From positions 48,515 through 112,514 of the forward strand of contig JAKAPL010000002.1 of NCBI GenBank assembly GCA_021807105.1: 64,000 bases of DNA. Direction: 5' to 3'. The stretch is from Myxococcales bacterium (lineage in GTDB: Bacteria; Myxococcota; Myxococcia; Myxococcales; JAKAPL01). The translations under genes and the position numbers were made by a program. Numbering within the stretch: position 1 is the stretch's first letter; the number at the start of each line of letters is the position of its first letter. This document shows positions 3,145 through 50,096 of this stretch, piece after piece. The notes under the pieces were generated by a model. That model had not been told where the DNA came from and made no database searches. It worked only from the letters and a program-made list of their open reading frames with translations.

Positions 3145-4236
<1,092 letters not shown>

Positions 4237-8605: not shown

Positions 8606-8642
8606 CCCTGGTCGGGCCGCGTCCATGAGGGAAGAGGAACCC

Positions 8643-10136
8643 ATGAAACGAATCGACCGCGTCACCGGGGCGGCGCCGGCCGTCCCCGCGAAGAAGGGGC
8701 GGGAGTCCGCGCACTCCGCCGGCCAGGCGAGCCACGACAGCGTCAACCCGCCCGCGCTGGTCGAGTTCATGCTCAGCGGCTGGCGGCCCCGCCCGTCCCG
8801 CGCGGCGCGGCCCATCGCGGCCGCCCGGACGTTCGCGCAGCGGCGGGCGCGCCTCGCCGCCCTCTTCCCGGGCGAGATCCTCATCATCCCCACCGGCCAC
8901 GAGAAGATCCGGAACAACGACAACACCTACCGCTTCCGGCCCGGCAGCGACTTCTACTGGCTCACCGGCGACCAGGAGCCCGACTGCGTCCTCGCCCTCG
9001 TCCCGGACCCGAAGGGGCACGCGAGCTGGCTCTTCGTCGAGGAGAACCCCGGCCGCTCCTCGCCGGCCTTCTTCACCGACCGGTCCAAGGGTGAGCTCTG
9101 GGTCGGCCCCCGCCTCGGCGTGGCCGAGAGCGGCGCCCGCTATGGCGCCGACCGGGCGCTCGGCCTCTCGGAGCTGCCCGCGCGCTTCCACGAGCTGTTC
9201 GCCGCCGGCCGTCCCACCCGCGTCGTCCGCGGCCTCGACCCCGCCGTCGACGCGCTCGCCCCCGCCCCGCGCGAGGCCGACCGCGCGCTCGCCGCGGCCC
9301 TCTCCGAGCTGCGGCTCTACAAGGACGCGATCGAGATCCGCGCCCTGGCGCGCGCCGTCGCCGCGACTCGCCGGGCCTACGACGACGTGCTCCGCGAGCT
9401 GCCTCGGCTGGCGACCGAGCGCGAGGTCGAGGCGACCTTCGATCGCCGGGCGAGGATCGAGGGCAACGGCGTGGGCTACGGCACCATCGCGGCGAGCGGC
9501 GCCCACGCCACGATCCTCCACTGGACGAGGAACGACGGCCCGGTCGCGAAGGGGGACCTGCTGCTCATCGACGCGGGCGTCGAGGGCGAGGAGCTCTACA
9601 CCGCCGACCTGACGCGGACCTTCCCCGTCTCCGGCCGCTTCACCGCCCCGCAGCGCGACGTCTACGGCCTCGTCCTCGCCGCCCAGCGGGCCGCCTTCGC
9701 GCAGGTCGTGCCCGGCGCCGACTTCCTCGCCCCCCACCGCGCGGCGATGGCCGTCTTCGCCGGCGGGCTCCACCGGATGGGCATCCTGAAGGAGCCCCCG
9801 GAGGTCGCGCTCGCCGAGGACAAGCAGTTCCACAAGCGCTGGACGCTCCACAACGTGAGCCACATGCTGGGCCTCGACGTCCACGACTGCGCCCACGCGC
9901 GCGCCGAGAGCTACCGCCAGGGCAAGCTCGCCCCCGGCATGGTCCTCACCGTCGAGCCCGGCCTCTACTTCCAGGTGGACGACCTGCGCGTCCCGCCGAA
10001 GTACCGCGGCATCGGCGTGCGGATCGAGGACGACGTGCTCGTCACCGCCCGCGGCCACGAGATCCTGACCGCCGACTTCCCGCGGGAGATCGAAGACGTG
10101 GAGCGCTGGGTCCGCGAGAAGGCAGGGAGACGGTAA
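8643..10136 (+). CDS. pepP: Xaa-Pro aminopeptidase (M24B)
   Basis: M24 metal-ligand motifs LLLIDAGVE, HNVSHMLGLDVHD, GMVLTVEPGLY and GVRIEDDVLVT. The ATG at 8643 is preferred over 8625 because it follows GGAAGAGGAAC (SD). Confidence 0.85.
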   Translation: MKRIDRVTGAAPAVPAKKGRESAHSAGQASHDSVNPPALVEFMLSGWRPRPSRAARPIAAARTFAQRRARLAALFPGEILIIPTGHEKIRNNDNTYRFRPGSDFYWLTGDQEPDCVLALVPDPKGHASWLFVEENPGRSSPAFFTDRSKGELWVGPRLGVAESGARYGADRALGLSELPARFHELFAAGRPTRVVRGLDPAVDALAPAPREADRALAAALSELRLYKDAIEIRALARAVAATRRAYDDVLRELPRLATEREVEATFDRRARIEGNGVGYGTIAASGAHATILHWTRNDGPVAKGDLLLIDAGVEGEELYTADLTRTFPVSGRFTAPQRDVYGLVLAAQRAAFAQVVPGADFLAPHRAAMAVFAGGLHRMGILKEPPEVALAEDKQFHKRWTLHNVSHMLGLDVHDCAHARAESYRQGKLAPGMVLTVEPGLYFQVDDLRVPPKYRGIGVRIEDDVLVTARGHEILTADFPREIEDVERWVREKAGRR

Positions 10137-10157: not shown

Positions 10158-10661
10158 ATGGGCACGAGAGGCCGAGAGATCATCGGGATGAACGTCGAGG
10201 AGCTGCTCGCGCGGCTGAACCGGGCCTACGCGAGCGAGTGGCTCGCCTATTACCAGTACTGGCTCGGGGCGAAGGTCATCAAGGGGCCAATGAAGGACGC
10301 GGTCGCCGCCGAGCTGAACCTCCACGCGACCGAGGAGCTGAACCACGCGGGCCTCCTCGCCGGCCGCATCCTCCAGCTCGGCGGCGTGCCGGTCACGAGC
10401 CCGGAGGGTTGGGGGAAGGCGAGCCCGTGCCCGTACGACGCGCCCGAGGATCCCTACGTGGCCGTCCTGCTCGACCAGAACCTCGCCGGCGAGCGGTGCG
10501 CGATCACGGCGTACAAGGCCCTCATGGACGCGACCGAGGGCAAGGACATGGTGACCTACAACCTCGCGCTGACCATCCTGGAGCAGGAGGTCGAGCACGA
10601 GGAGGACCTCCAGAACCTGCGCGAGGATCTGGATCTGATGGTGGAGCGGGGCAGGAGGTAG
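10158..10661 (+). CDS. Ferritin-like / DPS-like di-iron protein
   Basis: Four-helix-bundle ferritin-like pattern with paired E...ExxH sites (HATEELNHAG; LEQEVEHEEDL); 167 aa. Confidence 0.8.
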   Translation: MGTRGREIIGMNVEELLARLNRAYASEWLAYYQYWLGAKVIKGPMKDAVAAELNLHATEELNHAGLLAGRILQLGGVPVTSPEGWGKASPCPYDAPEDPYVAVLLDQNLAGERCAITAYKALMDATEGKDMVTYNLALTILEQEVEHEEDLQNLREDLDLMVERGRR

Positions 10662-10873
10662 GGGGCGCGCCCGGCCGGGTGCGGCGGGATCGTCCCCGAG
10701 CGAGGCGGCCGGGACCCCGGCGCCCGAAGAGGGTCAAGGTCTCGGGTGCGGGTGCGGGAGAGGGGCCGGAGGGGGTATCGGGAGCGGGTGGGGGCGCCGG
10801 ACCGCCGGACGGCCGCCCGAGGCGCCCCGTGGGAGCCTACCCCTTCCCGTGCGCGGCGCATCCCCGAGCGGAT

Positions 10874-11146
10874 CGTCTCGATCCGGCGTGGGATCGCTTC
10901 GATCCGCCGCCGCATGGCTTCGATCCACCGCCGCATGGCTTCGATCCACCGCCGCATGGCTTCGATCCGGCGCCGCATGGCTTCGATCCACCGCCGCATG
11001 GCTTCGATCAACCGCCGCATCACTTCGATCAACCGCCGCATGGCTTCGATCCGGCGCCGCATGGCTTCGATCCACCGCCGCATGGCTTCGATCCACCGCC
11101 GCATGGCTTCGATCAACCTCGGGATCGCTTCGATCCGCCGACGGGA
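10874..11146. repeat. Tandem array of 13 x 21-bp units (core GGCTTCGATCCACCGCCGCAT)
   Basis: Units start at 10874, 10895, 10916 ... 11126 with an exact 21-bp period. The central 9-10 units are near-identical and the two units at each edge are degenerate. Each unit carries GATC. No stop codon occurs in any frame. Confidence 0.9.
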
Positions 11147-11390: not shown

Positions 11391-12131
11391 GTGTCCCGGC
11401 TCCTGCACGCGGCGTACTGGCCGCTCGCCGCCGCGCTCGCCGCCGCCCCGGCGGCCGCGCGGGCGGCGGTCTACGTCAACGGCGTCGACGTGAGCGGCGC
11501 GGCGCTCTCCCAGAAGTTCGAGCACTGCACCGTGACGTTCGACGGCAAGGGGAACGTGCTCATCGACGCGCCGGGCTACTCCATCCAGTCCGTCACCGAG
11601 ACGGCGGTCCCGGCCCAGGTGGCGCGGGCCGCCGTCCCCGCCGTCCCGACCCCCGCCCCCGCGCCGGCGCCCCCGCCGGTCGCGCCTCCCCCTCCGCTTC
11701 CCGTGCCGGTCGTGGTCTCCACGGCGCCGCCCCCTCCGGCGCCCCTGCCGGCCGCCGCCTCCTCCCCCGCCGTCCTGACCCGGAAGTATTTCGTGGACGC
11801 GAAGCAGTCGCTGCCCGGGATGGCCCAGTACGACATCGATCTCTTCATCGACGGGAAGTGGGTCCGCAAGTTCCGCTCCGACGACGGCGAGATCGTCACC
11901 GAGGTCACCTCGTACCTCCACCCCGGCCCGAACCAGGTCCTCTTCGTGGCCAAGAAGGACATCGTGGGCGCGCGCAAGAGCTTCTCCCCCGCCGCGAGCT
12001 ACACGATCCTCCTCGGGGCGGGCGAGGCGAGCGGCGACATGGTCGTCATCGACGCCCCCTTGCTCACGTTCAAGCGCTCCGCGGACGAGATGGACGACGC
12101 GAGCCAGTCGTTCACGGTCGACGGGCGCTGA
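11391..12131 (+). CDS. Exported hypothetical protein with Pro-rich linker
   Basis: GTG start 5 nt after AGGAGA. Signal-like N-terminus ...AAALAAAPAAARAAVY. Pro/Ala linker, then a globular C-terminal half. High GC3. Confidence 0.6.
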   Translation: MSRLLHAAYWPLAAALAAAPAAARAAVYVNGVDVSGAALSQKFEHCTVTFDGKGNVLIDAPGYSIQSVTETAVPAQVARAAVPAVPTPAPAPAPPPVAPPPPLPVPVVVSTAPPPPAPLPAAASSPAVLTRKYFVDAKQSLPGMAQYDIDLFIDGKWVRKFRSDDGEIVTEVTSYLHPGPNQVLFVAKKDIVGARKSFSPAASYTILLGAGEASGDMVVIDAPLLTFKRSADEMDDASQSFTVDGR

Positions 12132-18169: not shown

Positions 18170-18199
18170 TTGCGACGCCGGGCCGCGCTTCTCTATACT
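18170..18199 (+). promoter_or_regulatory. Sigma-70-like promoter candidate for the prkA cluster
   Basis: TTGCGA - 18 bp - TATACT in a locally AT-enriched patch about 50 bp upstream of the prkA ATG. Confidence 0.35.
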
Positions 18200-18251
18200 G
18201 AAATTGGCCCGCGGTCGGAACCTCACGAAGAAGAGCGACAAGGAACAGTCC

Positions 18252-20327
<2,076 letters not shown>

Positions 20328-20346
20328 AGGGCGGGCCGGGATCCCG

Positions 20347-21453
<1,107 letters not shown>

Positions 21454-21459
21454 GGGCGC

Positions 21460-22950
21460 GTGGCCAAGGACCTCCCCGACACCTTACGGAAGCTGCGCGA
21501 CGAGATCGAAGGCTACGCCCGCGGCTTCGGGCTGGACTTCTTCGAGGTGATCTTCGAGGTCCTGCGCTACGACGAGCTGAATATGGTCGCCTCGTACGGC
21601 GGCTTCCCCAACCGCTATCCCCACTGGCGGTTTGGCATGGACTACGAACAGCTCGCGAAGGGGTACGAATACGGTCTCTCGAAGATCTACGAGCTCGTGA
21701 TCAACAACGATCCGACCTACGCCTACCTGCTCGAGGCGAACGCCGACGTCGACCAGAAGCTGGTCATGGCCCACGTCTTCGGCCACGGCGACTTCTTCAA
21801 GAACAATTACATGTTCGCCCACACCAACCGGAAGATGATGGACGAGATGGCCAACCACGCCACCCGGATCCGCCGCGCCATCGACCGGTACGGGGTGGAG
21901 AAGGTCGAGGACCTCGTCGACCGCTGCCTGTCGCTCGAGAACCTCATCGACTACCACGCGCCGTTCATCCAGCGCCGGCCGCGCCCTGCGCCGGGCGGGG
22001 AGGCCGAAGAGGAGCAGCAGGTCCAGGGCTTCGCCACCGACCGCGAGTACATGCGCGGCTACCTGAACCCGGCCGAGGTCCTCGCCGCCGAGCGCAAGCG
22101 GCTCGACGAGGAGCGGGGCCGGCTCAAGCGCTTCCCCGAGCAGCCGGAGCGCGACGTGCTGCTCTTCCTCCTCGCCCACGCGCCGCTCGAGCCGTGGGAG
22201 CACGAGGTGCTCTCGATCCTCCGCGAGGAGGCGTACTACTTCGCCCCCCAGGGGCAGACGAAGATCATGAACGAGGGCTGGGCCTCGTACTGGCACTCGA
22301 CGATCATGACGCAGAAGGCGCTGCGCGATTCGGAGGTGATCGACTACGCCGACCACCACTCGGGGACCCTGGGGACGCGGCCCGGCGCGCTGAACCCGTA
22401 CAAGCTCGGGATCGAGCTCTACCGCGACATCGAGGATCGCTGGAACAAGGGGCGCTTCGGCAAGGAGTACGACGAGTGCGACGACCTCGAGGTCCGGCGC
22501 GCCTGGGACAAGAAGCTGGGCCAGGGGCGGCAGAAGCTGTTCGAGGTCCGGCGCCACTTCAACGACGTGACCTTCATCGACGAGTTCCTCACCGCCGAGT
22601 TCGCCATCGAGCAGAAGCTCTTCGTCTACGGCTGGAGCGAGAAGCGCAACCAGTGGGAGATCCTCGACCGCGAGTTCCGCAAGGTGAAGGACAAGCTCCT
22701 CCACCAGCTCACGAACTTCGGCCAGCCGATCATCGAGGTCGTGGACGGCAACTTCGAGAATCGAGGCGAGCTGCTCCTCTCCCACCGCCACGACGGCATC
22801 GACCTGAAGCTCGATTACGCCCGCGAGACGCTGGGCGCGCTCGGCTCGCTCTGGCGCCGGCCGGTGAACCTCATGACGAAGGTCGGCGACAAGGGCGTGA
22901 TGCTCTCCTTCAACGGCAAGGAGCACCAGGAGCGGCGGGTCGAGCCGTAG
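21460..22950 (+). CDS. spoVR: SpoVR/YcgB-family protein
   Basis: Conserved blocks PHWRFGMDYE, MAHVFGHGDFFKNN and MNEGWASYWH. It is the third member of the canonical prkA-yeaH-spoVR triad. Confidence 0.9.
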   Translation: MAKDLPDTLRKLRDEIEGYARGFGLDFFEVIFEVLRYDELNMVASYGGFPNRYPHWRFGMDYEQLAKGYEYGLSKIYELVINNDPTYAYLLEANADVDQKLVMAHVFGHGDFFKNNYMFAHTNRKMMDEMANHATRIRRAIDRYGVEKVEDLVDRCLSLENLIDYHAPFIQRRPRPAPGGEAEEEQQVQGFATDREYMRGYLNPAEVLAAERKRLDEERGRLKRFPEQPERDVLLFLLAHAPLEPWEHEVLSILREEAYYFAPQGQTKIMNEGWASYWHSTIMTQKALRDSEVIDYADHHSGTLGTRPGALNPYKLGIELYRDIEDRWNKGRFGKEYDECDDLEVRRAWDKKLGQGRQKLFEVRRHFNDVTFIDEFLTAEFAIEQKLFVYGWSEKRNQWEILDREFRKVKDKLLHQLTNFGQPIIEVVDGNFENRGELLLSHRHDGIDLKLDYARETLGALGSLWRRPVNLMTKVGDKGVMLSFNGKEHQERRVEP

Positions 22951-22986
22951 CGCGCCGCGGTCCCGCCGCGGGCCAGGAGGCTCTCG

Positions 22987-24885
22987 ATGTCGTTTCGGAC
23001 GAAGCTGACGCTGGCCTTCCTCCTCGTGAGCCTCGTCGGCGTGGGGCTGACGGGCGCGGCCCTCGTCTACGGCAGCTACCAGGCGCAGATGGAGCAGATC
23101 GCCGAGAAGGAGCTGCTCCTCGTCCAGAACCGCGCGCACGAGATCCAGGACGACCTGACGCTGGTCTCGGCCGAGCTCGCGCGCCTCTCGACGCTCGCCG
23201 AGGTCGACCTCGCGGACAACGACATGGAGCCGGAGAAGCGCGTCCTGCGTTACGCCCGCAAGGACAGCAGCCTCTTCGCGATGCGCATCCTCCTGCTCGG
23301 CGACGACGGCACCTGCCTCTGGCTCGAGCCGGCCGACCCGGGGACGCTGGGCCGCTCGTTCTCCGCCGCGCCCTGGTTCGCCCGGCTGCGGCGCACCCTG
23401 CGGCCGGTCATCGCCGCCACGGGCGCGGCGGCCGGCGGCGATCTCGTCCGCGTCGCGGTCCCCATCCTCCGCAACGACCGCTTCTCGGGCGCCCTGGTGG
23501 GGCTGCTCCCCCGGCAGGCCCGCTTCGAGCGCGCGCTCCACCTGGACCTCGCGGCGAGCGGTGCCGCCGCGGTCCTCGACCCGTCCGGCCGCCTCCTCTT
23601 CCCGCTCGGCGACCGGCGCGGCGTCGCGGCGATCCGGCAGGCCGCGGCCGCGCGCGAGGGGCTCTCGGCCGCGGGCCGCGCCTGGGTGCGCGAGGACGGC
23701 CGCTCCTGGCTCTACGCCTTCGCGCCCATCCCCGCCGCCGGCTGGACGATGGTCCTGCGGGAGGCGCGCGACGAGCTGGACGACGACCTCGCCCGCGAGC
23801 TGCGCCTCTTCTCGCTCCTGCTCGTCATGGGCGTCACGCTCGCGGTCCTCGCCGGCTGGTGGCTCGCCCGCGTCGTCACCCGGCCGCTCCTCTCGCTCAA
23901 CGGGCGCGCCCAGCGGATCGCCGAGGGCGACTTCGGGACGATGCCCGAGCCGTCGCGGCGGCAGGACGGCGACGAGATCGAGGCCCTGGAGCGTGCGTTC
24001 TGGCGGATGGACCAGGCGATCTCCCTGCGCGACCGGGAGATCCGCGGCCTGGCCTCCACGCTGGAGGCCAAGGTCGAGGCGCGCACCGCCGAGCTCCGGC
24101 GCGCGCAGGGCGAGCTGCTCGCCGCGAACCGCTTCGCGGCCATGGGCAAGACCGCGGCGGCCATCGCCCACGAGCTGAAGAACGCGCTCAACGGCCTGGG
24201 CGTCGCGGTCGACCTGCTCGCCTCGGGCCACGCCCCGCCCGATCGCGCCGAGGCCATCCGGGTCCAGGTGCGCGAGGAGATCGCCCGCCTGCGCGACATC
24301 AGCGACAACCTGAACCTCTTCGCGGGCGAGCCGCGCCTCTCCCTCGGCCCGACGGACCTCCACGGGCTGATCGACCGGACGCTCGCGCTCCTCGCGCCGG
24401 CGCTTTCCGCGGGCGAGGTCACGGTCGAGCTGGACCTCTCGCCCGGCCCGGGGGGGCGCCGCGCGCCGCTCTTCGTCCCCGGCGACGCGGCGAAGCTCCA
24501 GTCGACGCTCATCAACCTCTGCAAGAACGCGATCGAGGCGATGGCCCCGGCCGCCTTCGGCGAGGGGATCGACGCGGCGCCGGTCCCGCGGCGCCGGCGC
24601 CTCACGCTGCGCACGCGCGTCGCGGGCGGCGAGGCGGCGCTCGAGGTGGAGGACAGCGGCGCGGGCGTCGATCCCGCCTCTGCGGCCCGGCTGTTCGAGC
24701 CGTTCTTCACGACCAAGCGGACCGGGACGGGCCTCGGGCTCGCCATCGCCCGCAAGGTCGTCGAGGCGCACGGCGGCCGGCTCGTGGCCCGCCCGCTCCC
24801 GCAGGGGACGATCTTCCAGATGGTGCTGCCGCGCGAGCCTCGGGCCGAGGCGGGCGCGCGGCCCACCCTCTCCGCGCTCGGATGA
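22987..24885 (+). CDS. Membrane sensor histidine kinase (periplasmic Cache-like domain, HAMP, HisKA, HATPase)
   Basis: Two TM segments flank a domain of about 250 aa. HAMP-like RPLLSLNGRAQRIAEGDF. H-box AAAIAHELKNALNGL. N, G1 and G2 boxes (LCKNAIEAM; EDSGAGV; GTGLGLAIA). Confidence 0.88.
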   Translation: MSFRTKLTLAFLLVSLVGVGLTGAALVYGSYQAQMEQIAEKELLLVQNRAHEIQDDLTLVSAELARLSTLAEVDLADNDMEPEKRVLRYARKDSSLFAMRILLLGDDGTCLWLEPADPGTLGRSFSAAPWFARLRRTLRPVIAATGAAAGGDLVRVAVPILRNDRFSGALVGLLPRQARFERALHLDLAASGAAAVLDPSGRLLFPLGDRRGVAAIRQAAAAREGLSAAGRAWVREDGRSWLYAFAPIPAAGWTMVLREARDELDDDLARELRLFSLLLVMGVTLAVLAGWWLARVVTRPLLSLNGRAQRIAEGDFGTMPEPSRRQDGDEIEALERAFWRMDQAISLRDREIRGLASTLEAKVEARTAELRRAQGELLAANRFAAMGKTAAAIAHELKNALNGLGVAVDLLASGHAPPDRAEAIRVQVREEIARLRDISDNLNLFAGEPRLSLGPTDLHGLIDRTLALLAPALSAGEVTVELDLSPGPGGRRAPLFVPGDAAKLQSTLINLCKNAIEAMAPAAFGEGIDAAPVPRRRRLTLRTRVAGGEAALEVEDSGAGVDPASAARLFEPFFTTKRTGTGLGLAIARKVVEAHGGRLVARPLPQGTIFQMVLPREPRAEAGARPTLSALG

Positions 24886-24934
24886 TCCGCCGCGCGACAG
24901 AGACCGCCCGCCGCGGCGGCCGTGAGGTGACGGG

Positions 24935-26353
24935 ATGAGGGCCAAGGTGCTCGTCGTGGACGACGAGAAGACGTTCCGGGTCGTGGCGGAGGCCGCGCTC
25001 GCCGCGGAGGGCTACGAGGTCGCGACCGCCGGGAGCGGCCGCGAGGCGCTCGACCGCTTTCGCGCCGATCCGCCGGACCTGGTCGTCCTCGATCGCAACC
25101 TCCCCGACACGGACGGCCTCGCGCTCCTGTCGCGCTTCCGCCCGCCCGGCGAGGCCGGCGCCCCGCTCGTCATCGTCGCGACCGCCTACGGCGACATCGA
25201 CCACGCGGTCCAGGCGCTCAAGCTCGGCGCCCACGACTACCTGACCAAGCCGCTCCAGCTCCCCGAGCTGGTCCACAAGGTCGCGGTCGCCCTCCAGGCG
25301 CGCCGGCTGGAGCACCGCCTCGACGCGATCGAGCGGGGCGAGCGGGGGCGGCAGGAGGCCGAGCCGCGGCTCGGGGAGAGCCCGGCCATGAAGCGGGTCG
25401 CCGAGCTGATCGCCGCGGTCGCCGGCAGCCCCGCCACCACGGTCCTGATCGAGGGCGAGAGCGGCACCGGCAAGCAGGTCGTGGCGAACCTCATCCACCG
25501 GCGGACGGAGCGGCGGGCGCAGGAGCCGTTCGTCGAGCTGAACGCGGCCTCGCTCCCCGACGCGTTCGTGGAGAGCGAGCTGTTCGGCCACGAGCGCGGC
25601 GCCTTCACCGACGCGAAGAGCCGCAAGGCGGGCCTTCTGGAGGTCGCCGACGGGGGCTCGCTCTTCCTGGACGAGGTCGGCGAGCTCTCCCCGGGCGTGC
25701 AGGCGAAGCTCCTCAAGGTGCTGGAGACCTCCACCTTCCGGCGGCTGGGCGGCACCGCCGACGTCCGCGTCGATGTCCGCTTCATCGCCGCGACCAACCG
25801 CGATCTCGACCGCGCGGTCGCGGAGGGCGCCTTCCGCGCCGACCTCTTCCACCGGCTCGCCGTCTTCCGCATCCGCCTCGCCCCGCTGCGCGAGCGGCCC
25901 GGCGACCTGCTGCCCCTCGCGCGCGCCTTCGTGAAGGAGCTCTCCGAGCGGATGGGCAAGGCGGTGGCGGGGCTCTCGCCCGAGGCCGAGGCGCTGCTCA
26001 CCGGCTACCCGTTCCCGGGGAACGTCCGCGAGCTGCGCAACGTGATCGAGCGGGCGGTGATCCTCGCGCCCGGCGAGGAGATCGGCCCGCGGTCGATCCT
26101 GCTGGGCGCCTCGCCCGGGGGGACGAGGGCCGCCTCCGGGGAGCGCACCCTCCCGCTCCTGCGCGAGGCCCTCGACCGGCTCGGCCGGCCGCCCACGCTC
26201 GACGAGCTGGAGCGGGACTACTTCGCCGAGGTCTGGCGGTACGCCTCGGGCAACAAGGCGGCCGTGGCGAGGCTCACGGGGCTCTCGTACCCCACCGTGG
26301 CCCGCAAGATCGCGGACTACGGGCTGGAGAGCGGCGTGAAGAAGCCCGGGTAA
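24935..26353 (+). CDS. Sigma-54-dependent response regulator (NtrC-family enhancer-binding protein)
   Basis: Receiver domain (VLVVDDE ... DLVVLDRNLPDTDG). AAA+ Walker A GESGTGKQ. Sigma-54 contact loop ERGAFTDA (GAFTGA variant). C-terminal Fis-type HTH GNKAAVARLTGLSYPTVARKI. Confidence 0.92.
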   Translation: MRAKVLVVDDEKTFRVVAEAALAAEGYEVATAGSGREALDRFRADPPDLVVLDRNLPDTDGLALLSRFRPPGEAGAPLVIVATAYGDIDHAVQALKLGAHDYLTKPLQLPELVHKVAVALQARRLEHRLDAIERGERGRQEAEPRLGESPAMKRVAELIAAVAGSPATTVLIEGESGTGKQVVANLIHRRTERRAQEPFVELNAASLPDAFVESELFGHERGAFTDAKSRKAGLLEVADGGSLFLDEVGELSPGVQAKLLKVLETSTFRRLGGTADVRVDVRFIAATNRDLDRAVAEGAFRADLFHRLAVFRIRLAPLRERPGDLLPLARAFVKELSERMGKAVAGLSPEAEALLTGYPFPGNVRELRNVIERAVILAPGEEIGPRSILLGASPGGTRAASGERTLPLLREALDRLGRPPTLDELERDYFAEVWRYASGNKAAVARLTGLSYPTVARKIADYGLESGVKKPG

Positions 26354-26812
26354 GGGCTCGCCGGCGGGCCGAAAGGCCATCGCCGCGCGATCGGCGGGCT
26401 CGCCGAGGGCGTGTCCGAGCACTTTCTCATGCTCGGCGACCGTTGCCCCACGTTCGGCGACCGACTCCCCGGCCTCGGCGACCACCTCCCCGCCCTCGGC
26501 GGGCTCGCCGAGGGCGTGCCCGAGCACTTTCTCGCGATCGGCGGGCTCGCCGAGGGCGTGCCCGAGCACTTTCTCGCGATCGGCGGGCTCGCCGAGGGCG
26601 TGCCCGAGCAAGTTCTCGCGATCGGCGAGGCCGCCGAGGGCGTGCGCGAGCACTTTCTCGCGATCGGCGGGCTCGCCGAGGGTGTGCCCGAGCACTTTCT
26701 CGCGATCGGCGAGGCCGCCGAGGGCGTGCCCGAGCACTTTCTCGCGATTGGCGACCGACTCCCCGGCCTCGGCGACCGACTCCCCGGCCTCGGCGAGCTC
26801 GCCGAGGGACCC
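26351..26812. repeat. Modular tandem array, 22 x 21-bp modules (42-bp a+b units interleaved with 21-bp c units)
   Basis: Modules: a = GGCGRGSYCGCCGAGGGCGTG, b = CCCGAGCACTTTCTCGCGATC, c = GGCGACCGACTCCCCGGCCTC. The order is a degenerate ab, ab, ccc, six ab, cc, then a half a. The period is exact at 26393, 26435, 26456, 26477, 26498, 26540 ... 26792. Confidence 0.9.
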
Positions 26813-29800
26813 TTACGCCGCGGGCTCGGCCCCCGCGGCCTCGCCCGCGCCCCCCGCGCGCCGATCGAGCCATTCGTGGGCGACGCGCAGGAGCGGCGGC
26901 TGGAGCGCGCGGGTGAGCACGGCGAGCTGGAGCGAGCCGCCGATGACCACGATGGCGAGCGGGCGGACCGTGTCGGCGCCGATGCCGTGCGAGAGGGCCG
27001 CCGGCAGGAGGCCGAGGGTCGCGACGAGCGTCGTCATCAGGACCGCGCGCAGTCGGCGGCGGCCGGCGTGGCGCGCCGCCTCCTCGGCGGACATCCCCTC
27101 GCCATGGAGCTCTTGGAAGTAGCTCACCATGAGCAGCGCGTCCTGGGTCGCGACCCCGAACACGGAGATGAAGCCCATCGCCGCGGAGGCCGAGAAGTCG
27201 GTGCCGGTCACGAGGAGCGCGAGGATGCCGCCCGTGATGGCGACCGGGATGTTCACGAGGATGATCGCGAGATCCACGGCATTGCCCGCGGCGCGGTAGA
27301 CGAGCAGCAGGATGAGCAGGAGGGCGAGCGGGACCGCGATCGCGAGCCGGGAGAAGGCCGCGTCCATCTCGTTGAACTCCCCCTCCCAGACGAGGTGGGT
27401 GTCGTAGGGCAGCTTCACCTGCCGGGCCACCCGCCGCCGCGCGTCCTCGATGGTCCCGCCGAGGTCGCGCCCGCGGACGCTGAACTTGACCGGCGTGTTC
27501 CGGTAGCCGTCGTTCCGGTAGATGACCGTCGGCCCCTCCACCCGCGCGATCCTCGCCAACTCGCCGAGCGGGACCGCGCCGCCGTCCGGCGCGGGGACGA
27601 GGATGTGGCGGATCGCCTCGACGTCCCTGCGCCAGGGCTCGGCCCAGCGGACCCGGAGGTCGTAGTGCTGCTCGCCTTCATAGACCTGCGAGACGACGGC
27701 GCCGCCCACGGCCGCCTGGACGACCGCGTTCACGTCGCCGGTGTTCAGGCCGTAGCGCGCGGCCGCGCGCCGGTCGATGGTGATGGTCAGATCGGGCTGG
27801 CCGATCGACGGGAAGACGCCCAGGTCCTGGACGCCGGGGACCTGGGACAGGACGGCGACGATCCGCCCCGCGATCGCGTCGTCCACGGCGAGGTCCGGCC
27901 CCACGACCTTGACCGAGTTCTCGCCCTTGATCCCGGAGACCGCCTCGTCGACGTTGTCCGCGATGTACTGGGAGAAGTTCACGAGGACGCCGGGGAACTC
28001 GCGCGAGAGCGCGCGCGTCAGCTCGTCGATGAGCGCGGCCTTGGTGACCCCGCGCGGCCAGTCCTCCTCGGGGGCGAGCGGCGCGTAGAGCTCCAGGTTG
28101 TTGAACTGCGCGAGGTCGGTGCCGTCGTCGGGCCGGCCGAGCTGCGAGACGACGCGCTCGACCTCGGGGTGGGCGCGCGCGGACAGGTCGCACTCCCGGG
28201 ACGAAGGAGGCGGCCGGCTTTGCCGGCCGGCGGGCGGAGGCCGAGGCGACGAGGCCGCAGCAGCTGGATCGACGGGGCAGCCCAGGAGGATGTTGCGGAT
28301 CTTCGGGACGTAACGGTCGGCCTGCGCGAGCGAGATCGACGTGGGGAAGGTGCAGCGGACCCAGAGGTTCCCCTCCTCCAGGTGGGGCATGAACTCCTTG
28401 CCGAGCCGCGGGAAGAGCCCGAGCAGGACGGCGACCGGGAGCGCGATGAGGAGGAGGGCGAGCTTGGGCCGCCGGAGCGCGGGGTCGAAGAGCCGATCGT
28501 AGAGGCGATGGATCGGGCGCATCAGCGCGCCCTCGTCCTCCCGCGCCGCGGGCGCGATGAAGCGGCCGGCGAGGACCGGGGTCAGGGTGAGGGCGAGGAG
28601 GATGGCGCCGCCGATGGCGAAGGCGTAGGTGCGGGCCATCGGGGCGAAGATCACCCCCTCCGCGCCGCTCATCATGAAGAGCGGGAGGAAGGCCACGGCG
28701 ATGATCGCCGTCGAGACGGCCATCGGACCGCCGACCTCGGAGGCGGCGGTGAGGATCCGCTCCTTCATCGAACCCTGGCCGCGATGGCCGAGGTGCTGGA
28801 AGACGTTCTCGATCATGATGACGGTCGAGTCGACGACGATGCCGAAGTCGATCGCCCCGAGCGAGATGAGGTTCGCGGGCGTGCCGGTGAGCTTCATCCC
28901 CAGGAAGGCGAAGAGGAGCGCGAGGGGGATGTTCACCGCGGTGATGAGGGCCGCCCGGCCGCTGCCCAGGAAGAGGAAGAGCAGGATGGTGACGAGGAGC
29001 ATCCCTTCGAGCGCGTTGTGGACGACCGTGTGGGTCGTCAGCCGCGTCAGCACGCCGCGGTCGTAGTACGGCACGATCTCCATGCCCGGCGGCAGGAGGT
29101 GGTTCTCCCGGATCTCGTCGAGCTTCCGGTAGATGCCCGCGAGCGTCGGCAGCGTCTCGCCGCCGTACTTCATGAGCACGATGCCCTCGACGATGTCCGG
29201 GGCGTTGTCCATGCCCACGATGCCGAGCCGGGGGGCGTGGCCGGCGGTGACGGTCGCCACGTCCGCGACCCGGACCGGCGTGCCGCCGCGCGCGGAGAGG
29301 ACCACGTCCTCGATGTCGTGCAGGTCGTGGATGAGGCCGATGCCGCGCACGTCGAAGGACTGCTCGCCGGCGGTCAGCCGGTCGCCGCCGACGTTGACGT
29401 TGGCGTTCCCGAGGGCGGCCTCGACCTGCCCGAGGGTGAGGCCGTAGCCGGCGAGCTTCATCGGATCGACGTCGACGTGGTACTGCTTGGTGAGGCCGCC
29501 GTAGGAGGTCACGTCGATGACCCCGGGCACCTGGCGCCAGGCCTTCTCCAAGATCCAGTCCTCGGCGGACTTCAGCTCGGTGAGCGTGTAGCCCTTGCCG
29601 GTGAGCCGGTAGCGGAAGACCTCGCCGATCGCGTTCCACGGCGAGATCGACGCGGTGACGCCGGGCGGCAGGGTGACCTGCGTCGCGAGCCGGTTGACGA
29701 CCTCCTGGCGCGCGGCCTCGTAGGTGACGCCCCAGCGGAAGTAGCACTTGACGTCGGAGAGGCCGAAGATGGACTGGCTGCGCACGTGGTCGAGGCCGGC

Positions 29801-30028
29801 CATGCCCGAGAGGCCCACCTCGGTCGGGACGGTGACGTAACGCTCGACCTCCTCGGCGGACCAGCCGATCGGCTGGCTGATCACCTCGACGAGCGGCGGC
29901 ACCGGCAGCGGGTAGGCCTCCACGTCCAGCGTCTCGAAGGCCCAGAGGCCGGCGCCGGCGGCGAGGAGGGCGAGCAGCAGGACGAGGGGCGGCGAGCGGA
30001 GCGCCCAGGCGACGACGCGGCGGATCAT
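26813..30028 (-). CDS. Heavy-metal-efflux-type RND inner membrane transporter (CzcA/CusA family)
   Basis: 1071 aa with a 12-TM RND architecture. The TM4 signature GAIDFGIVVDSTVIMIENV is typical of the HME-RND family. Confidence 0.92.
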   Translation of the reverse strand: MIRRVVAWALRSPPLVLLLALLAAGAGLWAFETLDVEAYPLPVPPLVEVISQPIGWSAEEVERYVTVPTEVGLSGMAGLDHVRSQSIFGLSDVKCYFRWGVTYEAARQEVVNRLATQVTLPPGVTASISPWNAIGEVFRYRLTGKGYTLTELKSAEDWILEKAWRQVPGVIDVTSYGGLTKQYHVDVDPMKLAGYGLTLGQVEAALGNANVNVGGDRLTAGEQSFDVRGIGLIHDLHDIEDVVLSARGGTPVRVADVATVTAGHAPRLGIVGMDNAPDIVEGIVLMKYGGETLPTLAGIYRKLDEIRENHLLPPGMEIVPYYDRGVLTRLTTHTVVHNALEGMLLVTILLFLFLGSGRAALITAVNIPLALLFAFLGMKLTGTPANLISLGAIDFGIVVDSTVIMIENVFQHLGHRGQGSMKERILTAASEVGGPMAVSTAIIAVAFLPLFMMSGAEGVIFAPMARTYAFAIGGAILLALTLTPVLAGRFIAPAAREDEGALMRPIHRLYDRLFDPALRRPKLALLLIALPVAVLLGLFPRLGKEFMPHLEEGNLWVRCTFPTSISLAQADRYVPKIRNILLGCPVDPAAAASSPRPPPAGRQSRPPPSSRECDLSARAHPEVERVVSQLGRPDDGTDLAQFNNLELYAPLAPEEDWPRGVTKAALIDELTRALSREFPGVLVNFSQYIADNVDEAVSGIKGENSVKVVGPDLAVDDAIAGRIVAVLSQVPGVQDLGVFPSIGQPDLTITIDRRAAARYGLNTGDVNAVVQAAVGGAVVSQVYEGEQHYDLRVRWAEPWRRDVEAIRHILVPAPDGGAVPLGELARIARVEGPTVIYRNDGYRNTPVKFSVRGRDLGGTIEDARRRVARQVKLPYDTHLVWEGEFNEMDAAFSRLAIAVPLALLLILLLVYRAAGNAVDLAIILVNIPVAITGGILALLVTGTDFSASAAMGFISVFGVATQDALLMVSYFQELHGEGMSAEEAARHAGRRRLRAVLMTTLVATLGLLPAALSHGIGADTVRPLAIVVIGGSLQLAVLTRALQPPLLRVAHEWLDRRAGGAGEAAGAEPAA

Positions 30029-31132
30029 CTACTCGGCCACCACGTCCGAGAGGAGGATCGCGCCCTTCACGACGATCTGGTCGCCCGGTTCGAGCCCGTG
30101 GAGGACGGGGAGGAGGTCGCCCGCCGCGCCCTCGTCGGCGATCACGGGCATCCGGACGTAGCGGTCGCGGCCCGGATCGACGCCGATGACCATCTGCTTG
30201 TCGCCGAAGTGGAGGAGGGCCTCGCGGGGGATGGCGAGGGCCCGGTGGCCCTCGGTCGAGAGGGTGACCGTCGCGTACATCTGCGCCTTGAGCAGGTGAT
30301 CGGGGTTTGCGAGGGTGCAGCGGACGGCGGCGGTCCGCTGCACCGGGTCGAGCTCGCCGGCGATCCAGTCGATCTTGCCGGGGAAGACCCGGCCCGGGTA
30401 GGCGACCGTGGTCACCTCGACCGGCGCGCCGACCTTCACCCGGGAGAGGTCCTGCTCGTACACGTCGGCGAGCACCCAGAGCTTCTCCTCGCGGCCGATC
30501 GTGTAGAGCTCCTGGGTCGCCCCGCCCGAGAACTGCCCCTGCACGTCGAGGCCGGGGTTGATCTGCCGGGCGAGGACCTCGCCGTCGATGGGCGAGACGA
30601 GCGGGAAGACTTGCGAGACGTGGCTCGCGCGGGCCTGCTTCATGAGCAGGCGGAGCTTCTGTTCGGCCCGCTCCTCCTCGGCGAGCGCCTGGGCGTAGGC
30701 GGCCCGGGCGGCCTCGAGGTCGCGCAGGGGGCCGGCCTGCGCGGCGTAGAGCTCCTTCTCTCGGGCGAGCTCCTTCGCCGTCTGGATCACCGCGGGCCGC
30801 GCCTTGTCCACGTCCGAGACGGCGTTGCCCATGTCCGGGGAGGCGAGGATGGCGAGCGTCTGCCCCCGCCGGACGTGGTCGCCGAGCTGGGCCAGGATCC
30901 GCGTGACCCGGCCGGTGACCGGCGAGAAGACGTGGGCGACCTCGTTCTCGTCGAAGGCGACGCGGGCGCTCGCGGCGAGCCGCCGGCCGACGGTCTCCTC
31001 GCGCACCTGCCGGACGGTGATCTGCGCGTTGACCTCGGAGGGCTTCGGCGCGGGGGGGAGCGCGTCGTCGCCCGCCTGGGGCTTCTGGCAGGCGGCGGCG
31101 GCGAGGAGGAGGAGGAGGAGGGGGACGCGCAT
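30029..31132 (-). CDS. RND efflux periplasmic adaptor (membrane fusion protein)
   Basis: Lipoprotein-like N-terminus LLLLLAAAACQ. Barrel-sandwich/hairpin pattern (VTGRVTRILAQLGDHVRRGQTLA ... coiled-coil ... VTTVAYPGRVFPGKIDWI). Its stop abuts the RND start. Confidence 0.85.
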   Translation of the reverse strand: MRVPLLLLLLAAAACQKPQAGDDALPPAPKPSEVNAQITVRQVREETVGRRLAASARVAFDENEVAHVFSPVTGRVTRILAQLGDHVRRGQTLAILASPDMGNAVSDVDKARPAVIQTAKELAREKELYAAQAGPLRDLEAARAAYAQALAEEERAEQKLRLLMKQARASHVSQVFPLVSPIDGEVLARQINPGLDVQGQFSGGATQELYTIGREEKLWVLADVYEQDLSRVKVGAPVEVTTVAYPGRVFPGKIDWIAGELDPVQRTAAVRCTLANPDHLLKAQMYATVTLSTEGHRALAIPREALLHFGDKQMVIGVDPGRDRYVRMPVIADEGAAGDLLPVLHGLEPGDQIVVKGAILLSDVVAE

Positions 31133-31141
31133 CGTGGAGTC

Positions 31142-31456
31142 CTAGCGGCGGACGAAGGGGACGCGGGCGAGGCGGCGCGCGAGGCGGCGGTGGAGGCGCG
31201 GGGCCTGGCGCCGGACGGGGAGGTGGGGCCGCGCGGCGCAAAGCGGGGAGAGGACCGGGGCGTCCCCGCGGGCCGGCGGGGGGCGGGATGCGGGTCGGAC
31301 CGGCGAGAAGGCCGTGCGCGGCCCGGCGCGGACCTCGTGCGGCGTCGCCGCGTGCGCCCGGGGCGCGAGGGCGAGCAGGGCGGCCGTAAAGAGGCCGCGC
31401 AGGAGGCTCCGAGGGGCGCGGATCGCCGGCAGGGCGGGGATGCTCTCTTTTCTCAT
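31142..31456 (-). CDS. Small exported protein inside the RND operon (possible CzcI/CusF-position accessory protein)
   Basis: ATG 12 nt after the OMP stop, preceded by GAGG. Signal-like RSLLRGLFTAALLALAPRAHA. GC3 is very high throughout. No recognisable domain. Confidence 0.4.
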   Translation of the reverse strand: MRKESIPALPAIRAPRSLLRGLFTAALLALAPRAHAATPHEVRAGPRTAFSPVRPASRPPPARGDAPVLSPLCAARPHLPVRRQAPRLHRRLARRLARVPFVRR

Positions 31457-31468
31457 GGCCTCGCGTCC

Positions 31469-32878
31469 TCAGTGGAACGTTCGATTCGTCGCCTGCTCGA
31501 GCTGGTAGACCGCGCTCCAGTAGTTCGCGAGGTCCTGGTGGTATTCGAGCTCCGCGGCGACGTAGGCGCGCTCGGCGAAGAGGAAGTCCACGAGCGAGGA
31601 GGCGCCCTTCTGGTACTGGATCTGGGCGAGATCGCGGGAGAGCTTGTACTCGGCGAGGAGCTCGCCCGGGATCATCCGCTCGACCTGCTCCTTCGCCGCC
31701 GAGTAGGCGGCGTAGCCGGTCGTCACGTCGGAGAGGACCTGGGCCTCCGCCTTGCCGAGCGACCGGCGCGCGGCCTCGACGTTGGCCCGCGCGCGCCCGA
31801 TCTCGCCCTGCTGCTGGTAGAGGACGGGGAGGTTGCCCGAGAGGCCGGCGGAGAACCCCGGCGCCGACGAGCAGGTCGCGCCGCTGCAAATCTCGCTGTA
31901 GCCCGCGTTGAGCGCGATGTCGGGCAGGAGCGCGCGCTTCGCCTGCCGGAGCGCCACCTCGGTCTGTTCGAGGTTCTTGCGGGCGATCTGGACGTCCGGC
32001 CGCAGCGCCAGCGCGTCGTCCACGAGTGCGTCGAAGCGGGTCGAATCGAGCGAGGGGAGCGGGCGGTAGTCGATGTCGCTCGTCAGGGTCACCTGGACCC
32101 TCCCCCCGCGCGCGCCGAGGAGGAAGGCGAGCGTGGCGATCGCCTGCTCGCGGCCGGCGCGGGCGGCGGCGAGCGACTGGAGCGCCTCGAGCTGGCCCGT
32201 CACGACCTGCGAGAGGTCCAGCCGGCCGATGGCGCCCTGCGCGAAGCGGACGCGGTTCAAGGCGAGCTGCCGGTCGAAGGTCGTGAAGGTCTCCTGGGCC
32301 GCGTCCACGTCGAGCCCGGCCATCACCGCGGCGACGTACGCCTCGCGAAGCTGCGCGAGCTCGACCCGCTTCACGTCGGCGACGGAGAAGCGCGCGGCCG
32401 CGAGCGCCTTCGCGGCGGCCTCGATCCGCAGGGAGCGTTTGCCCGAGAGCTGGTCCTCGATGGCTGCGTTGTCGTCGAGGCCGAGGCCGAAGCCCCAGGT
32501 GCTCGTCGTCGCGGAGTTGGGGGCGAGGTTGTAGAGGACGTCGTGGTTTAAGGACGGGACGTAATAGAGGGTCGGCTGGAAGCTCGGGTTCGGGTGGGCC
32601 CCCGCGGCCGTCAGGTCGCCCTCCGCCCCGCGGGCGTTCGCCTCGGCGATCAGGACGTCGAGGCCGCGGGCGAGGAAGAGCTCCTCCGCCTGGGCGAGGG
32701 AGAGGCGCGCGGGCAGGGCGCCGTCGCCGGGCGGCTCGGGCGCCGGGGCCGCGGCCAGAGAGGCCGCCGAGAGCAGCGCGAGGCTCGACCCGAGGAGAGG
32801 CACGCCTGGCTCTGCTGCAACGACGATGCCACCCTCGTCCCTGCCGCGCGGACAGGCGATCACGGAGCCTTTCCCCAT
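31469..32878 (-). CDS. TolC-family outer membrane efflux protein (start uncertain: ATG 32878 or GTG 32803)
   Basis: Two-repeat OEP pattern with coiled-coil segments (LSLAQAEELFLARGLDVLIAEANARGAEGD ... ANVEAARRSLGKAEAQV). It is the first gene of the OMP-small-MFP-RND block. Confidence 0.8.
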   Translation of the reverse strand: MGKGSVIACPRGRDEGGIVVAAEPGVPLLGSSLALLSAASLAAAPAPEPPGDGALPARLSLAQAEELFLARGLDVLIAEANARGAEGDLTAAGAHPNPSFQPTLYYVPSLNHDVLYNLAPNSATTSTWGFGLGLDDNAAIEDQLSGKRSLRIEAAAKALAAARFSVADVKRVELAQLREAYVAAVMAGLDVDAAQETFTTFDRQLALNRVRFAQGAIGRLDLSQVVTGQLEALQSLAAARAGREQAIATLAFLLGARGGRVQVTLTSDIDYRPLPSLDSTRFDALVDDALALRPDVQIARKNLEQTEVALRQAKRALLPDIALNAGYSEICSGATCSSAPGFSAGLSGNLPVLYQQQGEIGRARANVEAARRSLGKAEAQVLSDVTTGYAAYSAAKEQVERMIPGELLAEYKLSRDLAQIQYQKGASSLVDFLFAERAYVAAELEYHQDLANYWSAVYQLEQATNRTFH

Positions 32879-42601: not shown

Positions 42602-42735
42602 GGGCGCGAGGTCGCCGGCCGCGAGGGCGACCCGTTTCCTGGCCTCGGCGAGGTCGCGCAAAGCGTGCCCGAGCCTCTCCTCGCGTTCGGCGAGGTCGCG
42701 TCAAGGTCCTGCCCGAGCGTCTCTTCGTCCCCCGC
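42602..42735. repeat. Short array (about 6 modules) of the same 21-bp module family as 26351..26812
   Basis: GGCGAGGTCGCGCAAAGCGTG + CCCGAGCCTCTCCTCGCGTTC (42647-42688) and a second a+b pair, preceded by a c-like module GGCGACCCGTTTCCTGGCCTC. About three quarters of positions are identical to the 26.4-kb units. Confidence 0.75.
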
Positions 42736-50061: not shown

Positions 50062-50096
50062 GACCCTCTCCTTTCAAGAGGTGGGTTCGGGCGGTG

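Follow-up and report, generated by a model that had tools for sequence, protein, structure and literature searches.

Between the converging ends of two operons in the 64,000-nucleotide stretch of DNA that we analyzed (hereafter the window) lies a tandem array of 21-bp modules that runs from one stop codon to the other (Table 1). The gene to its left, encoding an NtrC-type response regulator, is the last of a prkA–DUF444–spoVR–kinase–regulator operon that is conserved in relatives, and ends with a TAA at 26351–26353. The gene to its right, encoding an RND efflux permease, is the last of an OEP–small gene–MFP–RND operon (according to the gene calls in the conspecific assembly L014), and its stop codon reads TTA on the plus strand at 26813–26815. 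The two genes are convergent, which places the array downstream of each. Neither Pfam matches nor gene calls revealed a partition or replication gene in the neighborhood of the array. The RND gene also contains a 63-bp in-frame duplication.

Table 1. Modules of the array, the genes that flank it, and a related locus, with positions in the window.
Feature	Position	Strand	Description
Left flank	24935..26353	+	NtrC-type response regulator / sigma-54 activator gene; Pfam Response_reg, Sigma54_activat, AAA_lid_14, HTH_8
Modules 1-2	26354..26395		Degenerate ab unit, same sequence in all four alleles
Modules 3-4	26396..26437		Variant ab unit (GTGTCC, CTCATGCTC)
Modules 5-7	26438..26500		Three c-type modules (m5, c, c'); plus strand C-rich
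Modules 8-19	26501..26752		Six 42-bp ab units, the main variable block; palindrome TCGGCG-N4-CGCCGA in each a module
Modules 20-21	26753..26794		Two c modules, identical to each other
Module 22	26795..26815		Terminal a-like module, ending in the RND stop codon
Right flank	26813..30028	-	CzcA/CusA-type RND efflux permease gene; Pfam ACR_tran; homologues named CzcA/CusA by their sources
Related copy	42645..42727	+	Two tandem ab-like units, 44-bp period; identity to ab at 31 of 42 positions (our count); nhmmer E = 1.3e-4

Cutting positions 26354–26815 into 21-mers yielded 22 modules that stay exactly in phase and are arranged as a b a b c c c (ab)x6 c c a. Tandem Repeats Finder (TRF) reported a 42-bp period (6.1 copies, 93% matches, score 449) as well as the 21-bp c blocks, and each module consensus occurred 5–9 times in the window at ≤3 mismatches, a count that none of the dinucleotide shuffles reached (0.00–0.11 expected per consensus). 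Because the b and c modules are homologous in register, matching at 15 of 21 positions (which no composition shuffle achieved), the basic period is 21 bp. Two elements thus make up the array: one 21-bp motif family, in its b and c forms, and the 21-bp a module, which carries a palindrome. The units are compound, imperfect repeats with a GC content of 74%. Apart from self-palindromic matches, every match to a module consensus in the array lies on the plus strand, in direct orientation. These results bear out the phased, stop-to-stop array of 22 x 21 bp described in an earlier reading made from the sequence alone, in its phase as well as its existence, but not the length of 462 bp that it gave for the spacer, which includes one stop codon; the true spacer is 459 bp (26354–26812). 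The same reading was right that the array is not CRISPR-like, as each half of the unit recurs throughout and there are no unique spacers, and that it is not accounted for by any gene model. Its statement that every frame is free of stops is correct for five of the six; one minus frame has a TGA at 26427–26429. The chimeric ORFs that it saw running through the region were found at 24707..26737 on the minus strand and 26411..32551 on the plus strand.

The a module contains a 6+4+6 palindrome, whereas b and c contain none. Of this 16-bp palindrome, TCGGCG-N4-CGCCGA, the array has eight copies and the rest of the 64 kb has one, versus 0.21 occurrences expected. Among the 10 distinct ab variants present in three alleles, its arms were invariant while its 4-nt center took three forms (GGCT, AGGC and AGGT), with two more (AGCT and AGCG) in the terminal modules. 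By our own calculation, the probability that all 14 variable columns would miss the 12 arm positions is ~0.008.

Hairpin-forming sequences lie at both ends of the array. In modules 1–2, a stem-loop, CGGCGGGCC-GAAA-GGCCATCGCCG (at ~26362–26385), begins 9 nt past the regulator stop codon, and at the other end, where the end of module 21 meets module 22, the window allele has a perfect palindrome, CCTCGGCGAG/CTCGCCGAGG (26788–26807), whose hairpin starts 5 nt past the stop codon in the RND transcript. On either strand, the array as a whole folded better than shuffled sequence, with z-scores of -4.6 and -5.0, which largely reflects the repeats pairing among themselves; single ab units showed no advantage over shuffles (z = 0 to -1). 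The GAAA-loop stem appeared in both the minimum-free-energy (MFE) and the centroid structures of the 491-nt fold, and in the centroid only when folded as a 61-nt segment (z = -1.4). For the terminal palindrome on the RND side, z was -2.2, and 5 of 200 shuffles folded as well. Searching Rfam 15 at permissive E-values returned only three sub-threshold chance matches (21–25 bits, versus cut-offs of 55–268). An intrinsic terminator, defined as a hairpin followed by a T-run, was found on neither strand between 25900 and 27300, where hairpins without U tracts do exist. A scan detected no canonical promoter at the array, and no sigma-54 -24/-12 promoter (TGGCAC-N5-TTGCW, ≤2 mismatches) between ~15.7 and 32.8 kb.

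Conspecific genomes carry the array in other lengths. In addition to the 22 modules of the window, we found 19 in L014, 18 in L015 (identical to L020) and 7 in L022, all in phase; these counts are taken from short-read assemblies, may be lower bounds, and in the case of the 7-module allele could reflect a collapse during assembly. The alleles always differed by whole 21-bp modules, within flanks that were ~99.2–99.8% identical (98.4–99.8% if aligned segments that take in part of the array are counted, these accounting for the lower values). These stepwise differences in strain-to-strain length support the hypervariable minisatellite that had been among the possibilities raised from the sequence alone. 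The main variable block has six ab units in the window, four in conspecific alleles and none in the 7-module allele, and the c' module is duplicated in one conspecific allele. The ends, by comparison, are largely retained: every allele has the hairpin by the regulator stop codon and a palindrome in the module by the RND stop codon, and the terminal c and a modules are kept in all of them with a single base changed, such that GAGCTC in the terminal module of the window is GAGCGC in the other alleles, which shortens the perfect palindrome and leaves its TCGGCG/CGCCGA arms intact. Modules shared between alleles differed at 4 positions in 147 bp (2.7%, counted by eye), compared with 5 in 248 bp for another spacer. 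This divergence, being about the same as that of other intergenic DNA, suggests that the interior evolves about neutrally.

Beyond these conspecific contigs, no such array was found in other genomes. The sequence-only reading had proposed searching related genomes for the modules; arrays of them were present in the conspecifics but not in the collections that we scanned or in more distant relatives. In collections that do not include this species, an exact-pattern scan of 185,579 species genomes gave five isolated, single chance matches and no array, the JGI metagenomes gave one match, inside a gene, and no array, and plasmid and phage collections gave only marginal GC-rich matches. The regulators and transporters of relatives are ~71–78% identical to those flanking the array, and have other neighbors and short, ordinary spacers: behind regulator orthologues at 71–76% identity, the next gene is dnaE2 or encodes an M23 peptidase and follows after 87–120 bp that contain no tandem array, and behind the RND orthologue (77%), a co-directional activator gene follows after 28 bp. 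Hence the array is restricted to a single species-level lineage, that of an uncultured Myxococcota bacterium, and sits at a junction of two gene clusters that have other neighbors in the nearest relative. Within the window, a profile search at E-values up to 10 identified one other related locus, the two-unit copy at 42645–42727, which sits within a divergent promoter region, is equally long in four conspecific genomes, and has a broken a-module palindrome. A second, unrelated 21-bp array, also polymorphic, is located 15 kb from the first (10871–11143), and Logan contigs terminate exactly at it.

We conclude that the array is probably a non-coding, species-specific, hypervariable compound minisatellite (VNTR), with ends that possibly serve as 3′-end hairpins. 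It consists of head-to-tail direct repeats with a unit in the ~10–100-bp range, is polymorphic in whole units, and lies outside coding sequence, as expected for such loci, which have been surveyed generally for bacteria (PMC6749651). The units would have derived from local sequence and multiplied, through slipped-strand mispairing or unequal recombination between identical 21-mers, until the minisatellite filled the whole spacer between the convergent 3′ ends. Only the two ends would then have a likely job, with the GAAA-loop hairpin by the regulator stop codon and the palindrome by the RND stop codon stopping or stabilizing the two converging transcripts. The hairpins at the ends may act in this way, although the lack of a canonical intrinsic terminator and the unremarkable folding of single ab units speak against such a role; internal a-module hairpins might contribute, in both directions, from an otherwise expendable interior. 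Slippage alone leaves several features unaccounted for, namely the lack of variation in the palindrome arms, a fill that runs exactly from stop to stop, a codon-like GC pattern, and the presence 15 kb away of an unrelated polymorphic array of equal period.

Among known systems, the array would be an ordinary yet unusually tidy bacterial minisatellite. The mycobacterial MIRU loci of Supply et al. reportedly number ~40, dispersed and mostly located between co-directional genes of operons, where their small ORFs overlap the stop and start codons on either side and are said to couple translation; their unit length is also said to be a multiple of three, in frame with the flanking stop codons. Like MIRUs, our array has intergenic head-to-tail repeats of tens of base pairs that vary between strains in whole units; its unit is likewise divisible by three, and the array is in frame with the stop codon at each end. 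It differs from them in lying between convergent genes, in its 21/42-bp compound unit of a, b and c modules, and in having one further related locus in 64 kb. The repeats of Borgs are fast-evolving, genome-specific and derived from local sequence, have partial or degenerate flanking units, may begin at the end of a gene, are usually unique to a locus with several per genome, and terminate contigs in assemblies (PMC9879509). The array resembles them in its rapid evolution, its specificity to a genome, its degenerate end unit and its start at the end of a gene. However, Borg repeats are perfect, A-rich and carried by an archaeal extrachromosomal element, with 14–38% of intergenic units divisible by three (PMC9879509), whereas the units here are GC-rich, imperfect and compound, on a bacterial chromosome-like contig.

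An unlikely alternative is that the array is a cluster of a REP/BIME-like dispersed family, mobilized or maintained in many copies at other 3′ ends. REP clusters such as the BIMEs of E. coli typically lie between convergent genes and are built of palindromic units that alternate in orientation, in families of hundreds of copies. The GC-rich, imperfectly palindromic a module, the mosaic of module types, the position after the stop codons of convergent genes with a likely role as a 3′-end hairpin, and the existence of a second, diverged copy at 42645–42727 all recall such elements, although the b and c modules hold no palindrome and single units fold no better than shuffled sequence. Moreover, every module is direct, that copy is without the palindrome, and it is the only other locus that the profile search found in the 64 kb; no RAYT-like gene was noticed in passing. 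The absence of the modules from every other genome scanned also speaks against a dispersed family, although REP families are likewise species-specific. The earlier suggestion of a REP/BIME-like element is therefore not supported within the window.

Another proposal, that the array is a phased platform for a DNA-binding protein, appears less probable still. Its proponents would have a dimeric helix-turn-helix (HTH) protein, possibly the adjacent sigma-54 activator, bind the predicted 16-bp site, which recurs every 42 bp (four helical turns) and so on one face of the DNA, in the manner of an enhancer or of a centromere-like platform of the sopC type. The concentration of the palindrome in the array, its invariant arms around a variable center, the exact phase, and the adjoining gene with its HTH_8 domain are all consistent with this proposal. 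Also in its favor, activators of M. xanthus use tandem half-sites and sigma-54 sites have been reported in unusual places (PMC9765219). But unlike an enhancer, the array lies downstream of both genes, with no match to TGGCAC-N5-TTGC at ≤2 mismatches in or near it; the modules, in our own comparison, are without the Nla28 half-site CT(C/G)CG(C/G)AG within 2 mismatches (consensus from PMC9765219); and the RND operon has, for its own sigma-54 promoter, a likely upstream element that looks different. The sopC centromere of the F plasmid consists of 12 x 43 bp with an inverted repeat in each unit, and our array is similar to such centromeres and to plasmid iteron arrays in its ~42–43-bp tandem units, its short inverted repeat in each, and its helical-phase spacing. 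Unlike them, it has a chromosomal context with no partition or replication genes nearby, shows no meaningful sequence similarity to anything in the plasmid collection, and does not conserve its copy number. The number of palindromic sites ranges from 2 to 8 among conspecific genomes, point divergence is like that of intergenic DNA, the palindrome is broken in the copy at 42645, and the 7-module allele does without the interior. Given the downstream position, the lack of a -24/-12 promoter match, the dispensable interior and the intergenic-like divergence, the idea of a phased array for the adjacent enhancer-binding protein found no support, and the sole hint in its favor is the invariance of the arms. 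A broader form of the proposal, to which we would give an equally slim chance, is that the lineage keeps arrays with a period of 21 bp (two helical turns) as phased landing pads for a DNA-binding protein, with copy-number change tuning occupancy; in the first array that protein would recognize the palindrome with invariant arms and might be the neighboring activator. This form would unite the second 21-bp array, the 63-bp duplication in the RND gene, and the frame-keeping stop-to-stop fill in a single mechanism.

We regard it as very improbable that the repeats are coding, whether as a small repeat protein, a read-through C-terminal extension, or a decayed repeat-protein gene. The module length does correspond to seven codons, in frame with both flanking stop codons and with five of the six frames open; GC content at second positions of frame 0 dips to a gene-like 0.48; the GGC-to-GGT and ATC-to-ATT variants are synonymous in the plus frame; and the minus frame translates to (GEPADREKVLGHAL)n, which is similar to other proteins with 14-residue repeats. 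Against this, GC content by codon position is 0.88/0.48/0.89, symmetric between positions 1 and 3, versus a GC3 of 0.97–0.99 in the neighboring genes, and the ORFs in frame 0 meet no stop codon until they have run 0.7–2 kb antisense through those genes. The 14 variable columns fall 6/5/3 on codon positions 1/2/3 (our count), with no excess at the third position, and most variants are non-synonymous in both frames. Nothing in Pfam scored above its cut-off, the plus frame had no homologue in a word-indexed search, a HMMER scan with the minus frame returned nothing but unrelated proteins whose repeats are 7 or 14 residues long, and the gene callers left the spacer empty in L014, L015, L020 and L021. 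The best short minus-frame match, P0142, proved to be a gene call over an unrelated DNA array of 42 bp x 5 in another organism, with 22 of 42 positions identical (our count). As for a decayed gene, we considered a remnant of the two genes found behind the RND gene in the nearest relative, one for a receiver-less activator and one of 85 residues, and detected no similarity to either by blastp, blastn or tblastn.

That the array, or its differences in copy number, was created by mis-assembly of short reads deserves as little credence: repeats do break or collapse such assemblies, as where Logan contigs end at the second array, and the source of the 7-module allele is a k141 contig of 2.6 kb, but the same structure was recovered independently in at least four assemblies with allele-specific point variants, the arrays of two assemblies are byte-identical, and the longest perfect 42-bp periodicity in the window (~115 bp by our measurement) is shorter than k = 141.

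As a minisatellite, the array is a ready-made marker for typing strains of an uncultured Myxococcota population. It is also a warning to annotators and assemblers, since it spawns chimeric ORFs of 676 and 2046 residues, and an array similar to it appears to have been deposited elsewhere as a 'protein'. More broadly, it indicates a bacterial chromosome with several fast-evolving, locus-specific intergenic arrays, a situation better known from Borgs and a few satellite-rich prokaryotes, and it raises the question of why two unrelated arrays of one genome have a common 21-bp phase. If the palindrome were a protein site after all, the alleles would constitute a natural copy-number series for studies of cooperative binding. 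With respect to GATC sites, the array is unremarkable, containing 6 of the 515 in the window.

Between the convergent sigma-54 regulator and RND genes, the 21-bp modules of the focal array (types a, b and c) behave as a variable-number tandem repeat. Cutting 26354–26815 into 21-mers gave 22 modules in perfect phase, in a window with a G+C content of 74%. Tandem Repeats Finder reported a period of 42 bp (6.1 copies, 93% matches, score 449) as well as the 21-bp c blocks, and each module consensus occurred 5–9 times in the window, compared to 0.00–0.11 times expected from shuffles. The b and c modules were identical at 15 of 21 positions, which no shuffle reached, and are homologous in register; a shares only the arm motif TCGGCG/CGCCGA with the reverse complement of b/c. 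The base period is therefore 21 bp, with the 42-bp ab unit as a higher-order repeat. The sequence-only reading had described this arrangement correctly apart from two details: the spacer proper is 459 bp rather than 462 bp, and the absence of stop codons claimed for every frame holds for five of six, the sixth containing a minus-strand TGA (26427–26429).

Through members of protein clusters we reached conspecific contigs from four assemblies: L014/L021 (GCA_027418035.1), L015 (ERZ27233564), L020 (GCA_027417975.1) and L022 (ERZ27236914). Their flanking DNA was ~99.2–99.8% identical to the window or to each other, and all had the same convergent gene pair with a stop-to-stop array between, differing in length. 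The alleles comprised 22, 19, 18 or 7 modules, although, with short-read assemblies as their source, the true copy numbers may be higher, and assembly collapse could account for the 7-module allele. Lengths always differed by whole numbers of modules, as expected of the hypervariable minisatellite that had been one of three readings first proposed, and each allele also had its own set of point variants. Variable-number behavior is thus well supported. In the outer modules shared by the window and L015, 4 of 147 positions differed (2.7%, counted by eye), compared to 5 of 248 in another spacer; genes differed by ~0.3–0.8%. The array thus changes at about the pace of unconstrained intergenic DNA, and its units turn over rapidly besides.

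Coordinates and composition of the focal array, its flanking genes and related features
Feature	Position	Strand	Description
NtrC-type response regulator / sigma-54 activator gene	24935–26353	+	472 residues; stop TAA 26351–26353
AcrB/CzcA-type RND gene	26813–30028	-	1071 residues; stop at 26813–26815
Focal array, window allele			22 modules, abab ccc (ab)6 cc a
Focal array, L014/L021 allele			19 modules, abab cccc (ab)4 cc a
Focal array, L015 allele (L020 identical)			18 modules, abab ccc (ab)4 cc a
Focal array, L022 allele			7 modules, abab cc a
Sigma-54-type promoter of CzcA-type efflux (RND) operon	32816–32831	-	TGGCATCGTCGTTGCA; directly upstream of outer-membrane-factor gene
Second 21-bp tandem array	10871–11143 (L023 ~3460–3753)		unit CATGGCTTCGATCCACCGCCG; unrelated to focal array
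Two tandem ab-like units	42645–42727		44-bp period; ~74% identity to focal ab unit

Could the modules instead encode a repetitive protein? Each is seven codons long, both flanking stops are in register with frame 0, and second-position GC in that frame falls to a gene-like 0.48. However, GC at positions 1 and 3 was symmetric (0.88 and 0.89), whereas real genes in the window have a GC3 of 0.97–0.99 and a GC1 of 0.72–0.77, and the frame-0 ORFs ran on without a stop until far antisense inside the neighboring genes. Moreover, comparison of 10 distinct ab variants gave 14 variable columns, which fell 6/5/3 on codon positions 1/2/3 (counted by eye), Pfam returned nothing above cut-off for the translation, no homologue of the plus-frame peptide was found, and the spacer held no gene calls in L014, L015, L020 or L021. 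The minus-frame peptide did match 39 proteins, but these were an unrelated mixture with 7- and 14-residue repeats. We therefore rejected the coding interpretation; the simplest account of the codon-like composition is descent from gene-like sequence nearby. Compared by eye, module a (GGGCTCGCCGAGGGCGTG, GLAEGV) agrees with the codons that end the regulator gene (GGGCTGGAGAGCGGCGTG, GLESGV) at 12 of 18 positions, a likeness not significant alone. One of the minus-frame matches, P0142, is probably not a real protein: its 133-residue gene call coincides with an unrelated 42-bp × 5 tandem array in an unrelated genome (L027 3170–3385), adjoining ECF sigma and FecR genes, which was probably a DNA array deposited as protein.

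The proposal that the array binds the adjacent activator found no support: there was no -24/-12 match in or near the array, which lies downstream of both flanking genes, and the modules did not fit the half-site of Nla28, the one well-defined myxobacterial activator half-site. The palindrome of module a, TCGGCG-N4-CGCCGA, had eight occurrences within the array and one in the rest of the window, compared to 0.21 expected; its arms were invariant across alleles, and its 4-nt center took five forms (GGCT, AGGC and AGGT in ab units; AGCT and AGCG in terminal modules). That some dimeric protein binds the palindrome seems improbable to us. The sigma-54-type promoter of the RND operon lies 6 kb from the array. 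A relative had a perfect consensus, TGGCACCGGGGTTGCT, at the corresponding place (L028 2110–2125), and an upstream element that looks unlike the array modules (TTCGATC...CGCAAG.TCCTTG) was conserved with the promoter, so the metal-efflux operon looks sigma-54-dependent.

Neither an Rfam match nor a canonical promoter or terminator was found at the array, and single ab units folded no better than shuffles. The whole array had fold z-scores of -4.6 and -5.0, largely because the repeats pair with one another. Both array ends were present in every allele, including that of seven modules. On the regulator side, a hairpin with a GAAA loop starts 9 nt past the stop, and modules 1–2 were identical in all alleles. 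On the RND transcript, a palindrome starts 5 nt past the stop; it is a perfect 10+10 in the window allele alone (fold z = -2.2), while in the others GAGCGC replaces GAGCTC and the 6-bp arms are kept. We infer that the ends may serve as 3′-end hairpins of the two converging transcripts, with the interior being expendable expansion.

Outside the species, the array was not found in the relatives and collections covered. The five-gene cluster prkA, DUF444 (yeaH-like), spoVR, dCache histidine kinase and sigma-54 response regulator (18204–26353) was collinear in Myxococcota relatives with identities as low as 71% (L006, L007–L012, L014), and synteny was lost directly after the regulator gene. Behind regulator orthologues of 71–76% identity, which retained this upstream operon, the spacers were ordinary and array-free: in L006, 87 bp separate the regulator gene from a convergent dnaE2, and in L007–L012 the next gene, 120 bp on, encodes an M23 peptidase. 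The 77% RND orthologue (L028, from the same MAG as L006) was followed after 28 bp by co-directional genes for a receiver-less sigma-54 activator and an 85-residue protein, neither with detectable similarity to the array. With other neighbors beside both clusters in the nearest available relative, the array sits exactly at their junction. When 185,579 species genomes and JGI metagenomes were scanned for exact patterns, the only matches were single and isolated, with one lying inside a gene; nothing beyond marginal GC-rich matches came from the plasmid and phage collections. The L028 activator (317 residues) and the Cys-rich 85-residue gene (8188–9399, 3′ of the RND gene) are absent from the corresponding window position (26354–26812) and have no orthologue anywhere in the 64 kb, where the response regulator itself matches best (45% identity). 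Before prkA, we read by eye a sigma-70-like TTGCGA-N18-TATACT (~18170–18199).

Among known kinds, the array comes closest to two and operates like both: intergenic minisatellites or VNTRs of bacteria, such as MIRU loci (surveyed in PMC6749651), and the tandem repeats of Borg elements, which evolve fast and derive from local sequence (PMC9879509). We rejected identity with MIRU, a dispersed kind, because the flanking genes converge and only one other related locus was seen in the 64 kb. The suggested REP/BIME-like element also fails as a BIME, since the units are in direct orientation only. CRISPR array (already dismissed by the sequence-only reading, and we agree), sigma-54 enhancer and centromere identities were rejected as well. 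The biological surprise is modest; the observation itself is clean.

The second 21-bp array has the same period as the focal one and no sequence similarity to it. It lies in a 729-bp spacer between a ferritin-like gene (10158–10661) and a gene for a 246-residue protein (11391–12131); the window has 13 modules and conspecific L023 has 14, with variants shuffled at three positions. Several short-read contigs break at this array, which is exactly where Logan contigs and one MAG contig stop. Simple slippage does not account for two polymorphic arrays of 21-bp period within 16 kb. The two ab-like units occupy a divergent promoter region between genes for a small basic protein and an SNF2-family helicase; their length was the same in four conspecific genomes, with three of five spacer differences inside the units.

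The RND gene of conspecific genomes contains an in-frame tandem duplication, perfect over 63 bp (21 codons; L014 11767–11887; window ~28200–28262), of a Pro/Ser/Arg-rich stretch, AAASSPRPPPAGRQSRPPPPD, giving 1092 rather than 1071 residues. A 157-bp insertion in L014 (~6710–6867), absent from the window (~32965), lies between the efflux operon and a recD-like gene; the flanking AGAGTGTGTGAACGAATC recurs in inverted form as its far end, and the insertion looks MITE-like or hairpin-forming. Finally, a 9-bp repeat, CTTCTTGGC × 5.8 (49915–49966; Ala-Lys-Lys on the minus strand), lies between 47644–49752 (-) and 49919–52240 (+), in the spacer or at the start of a gene.
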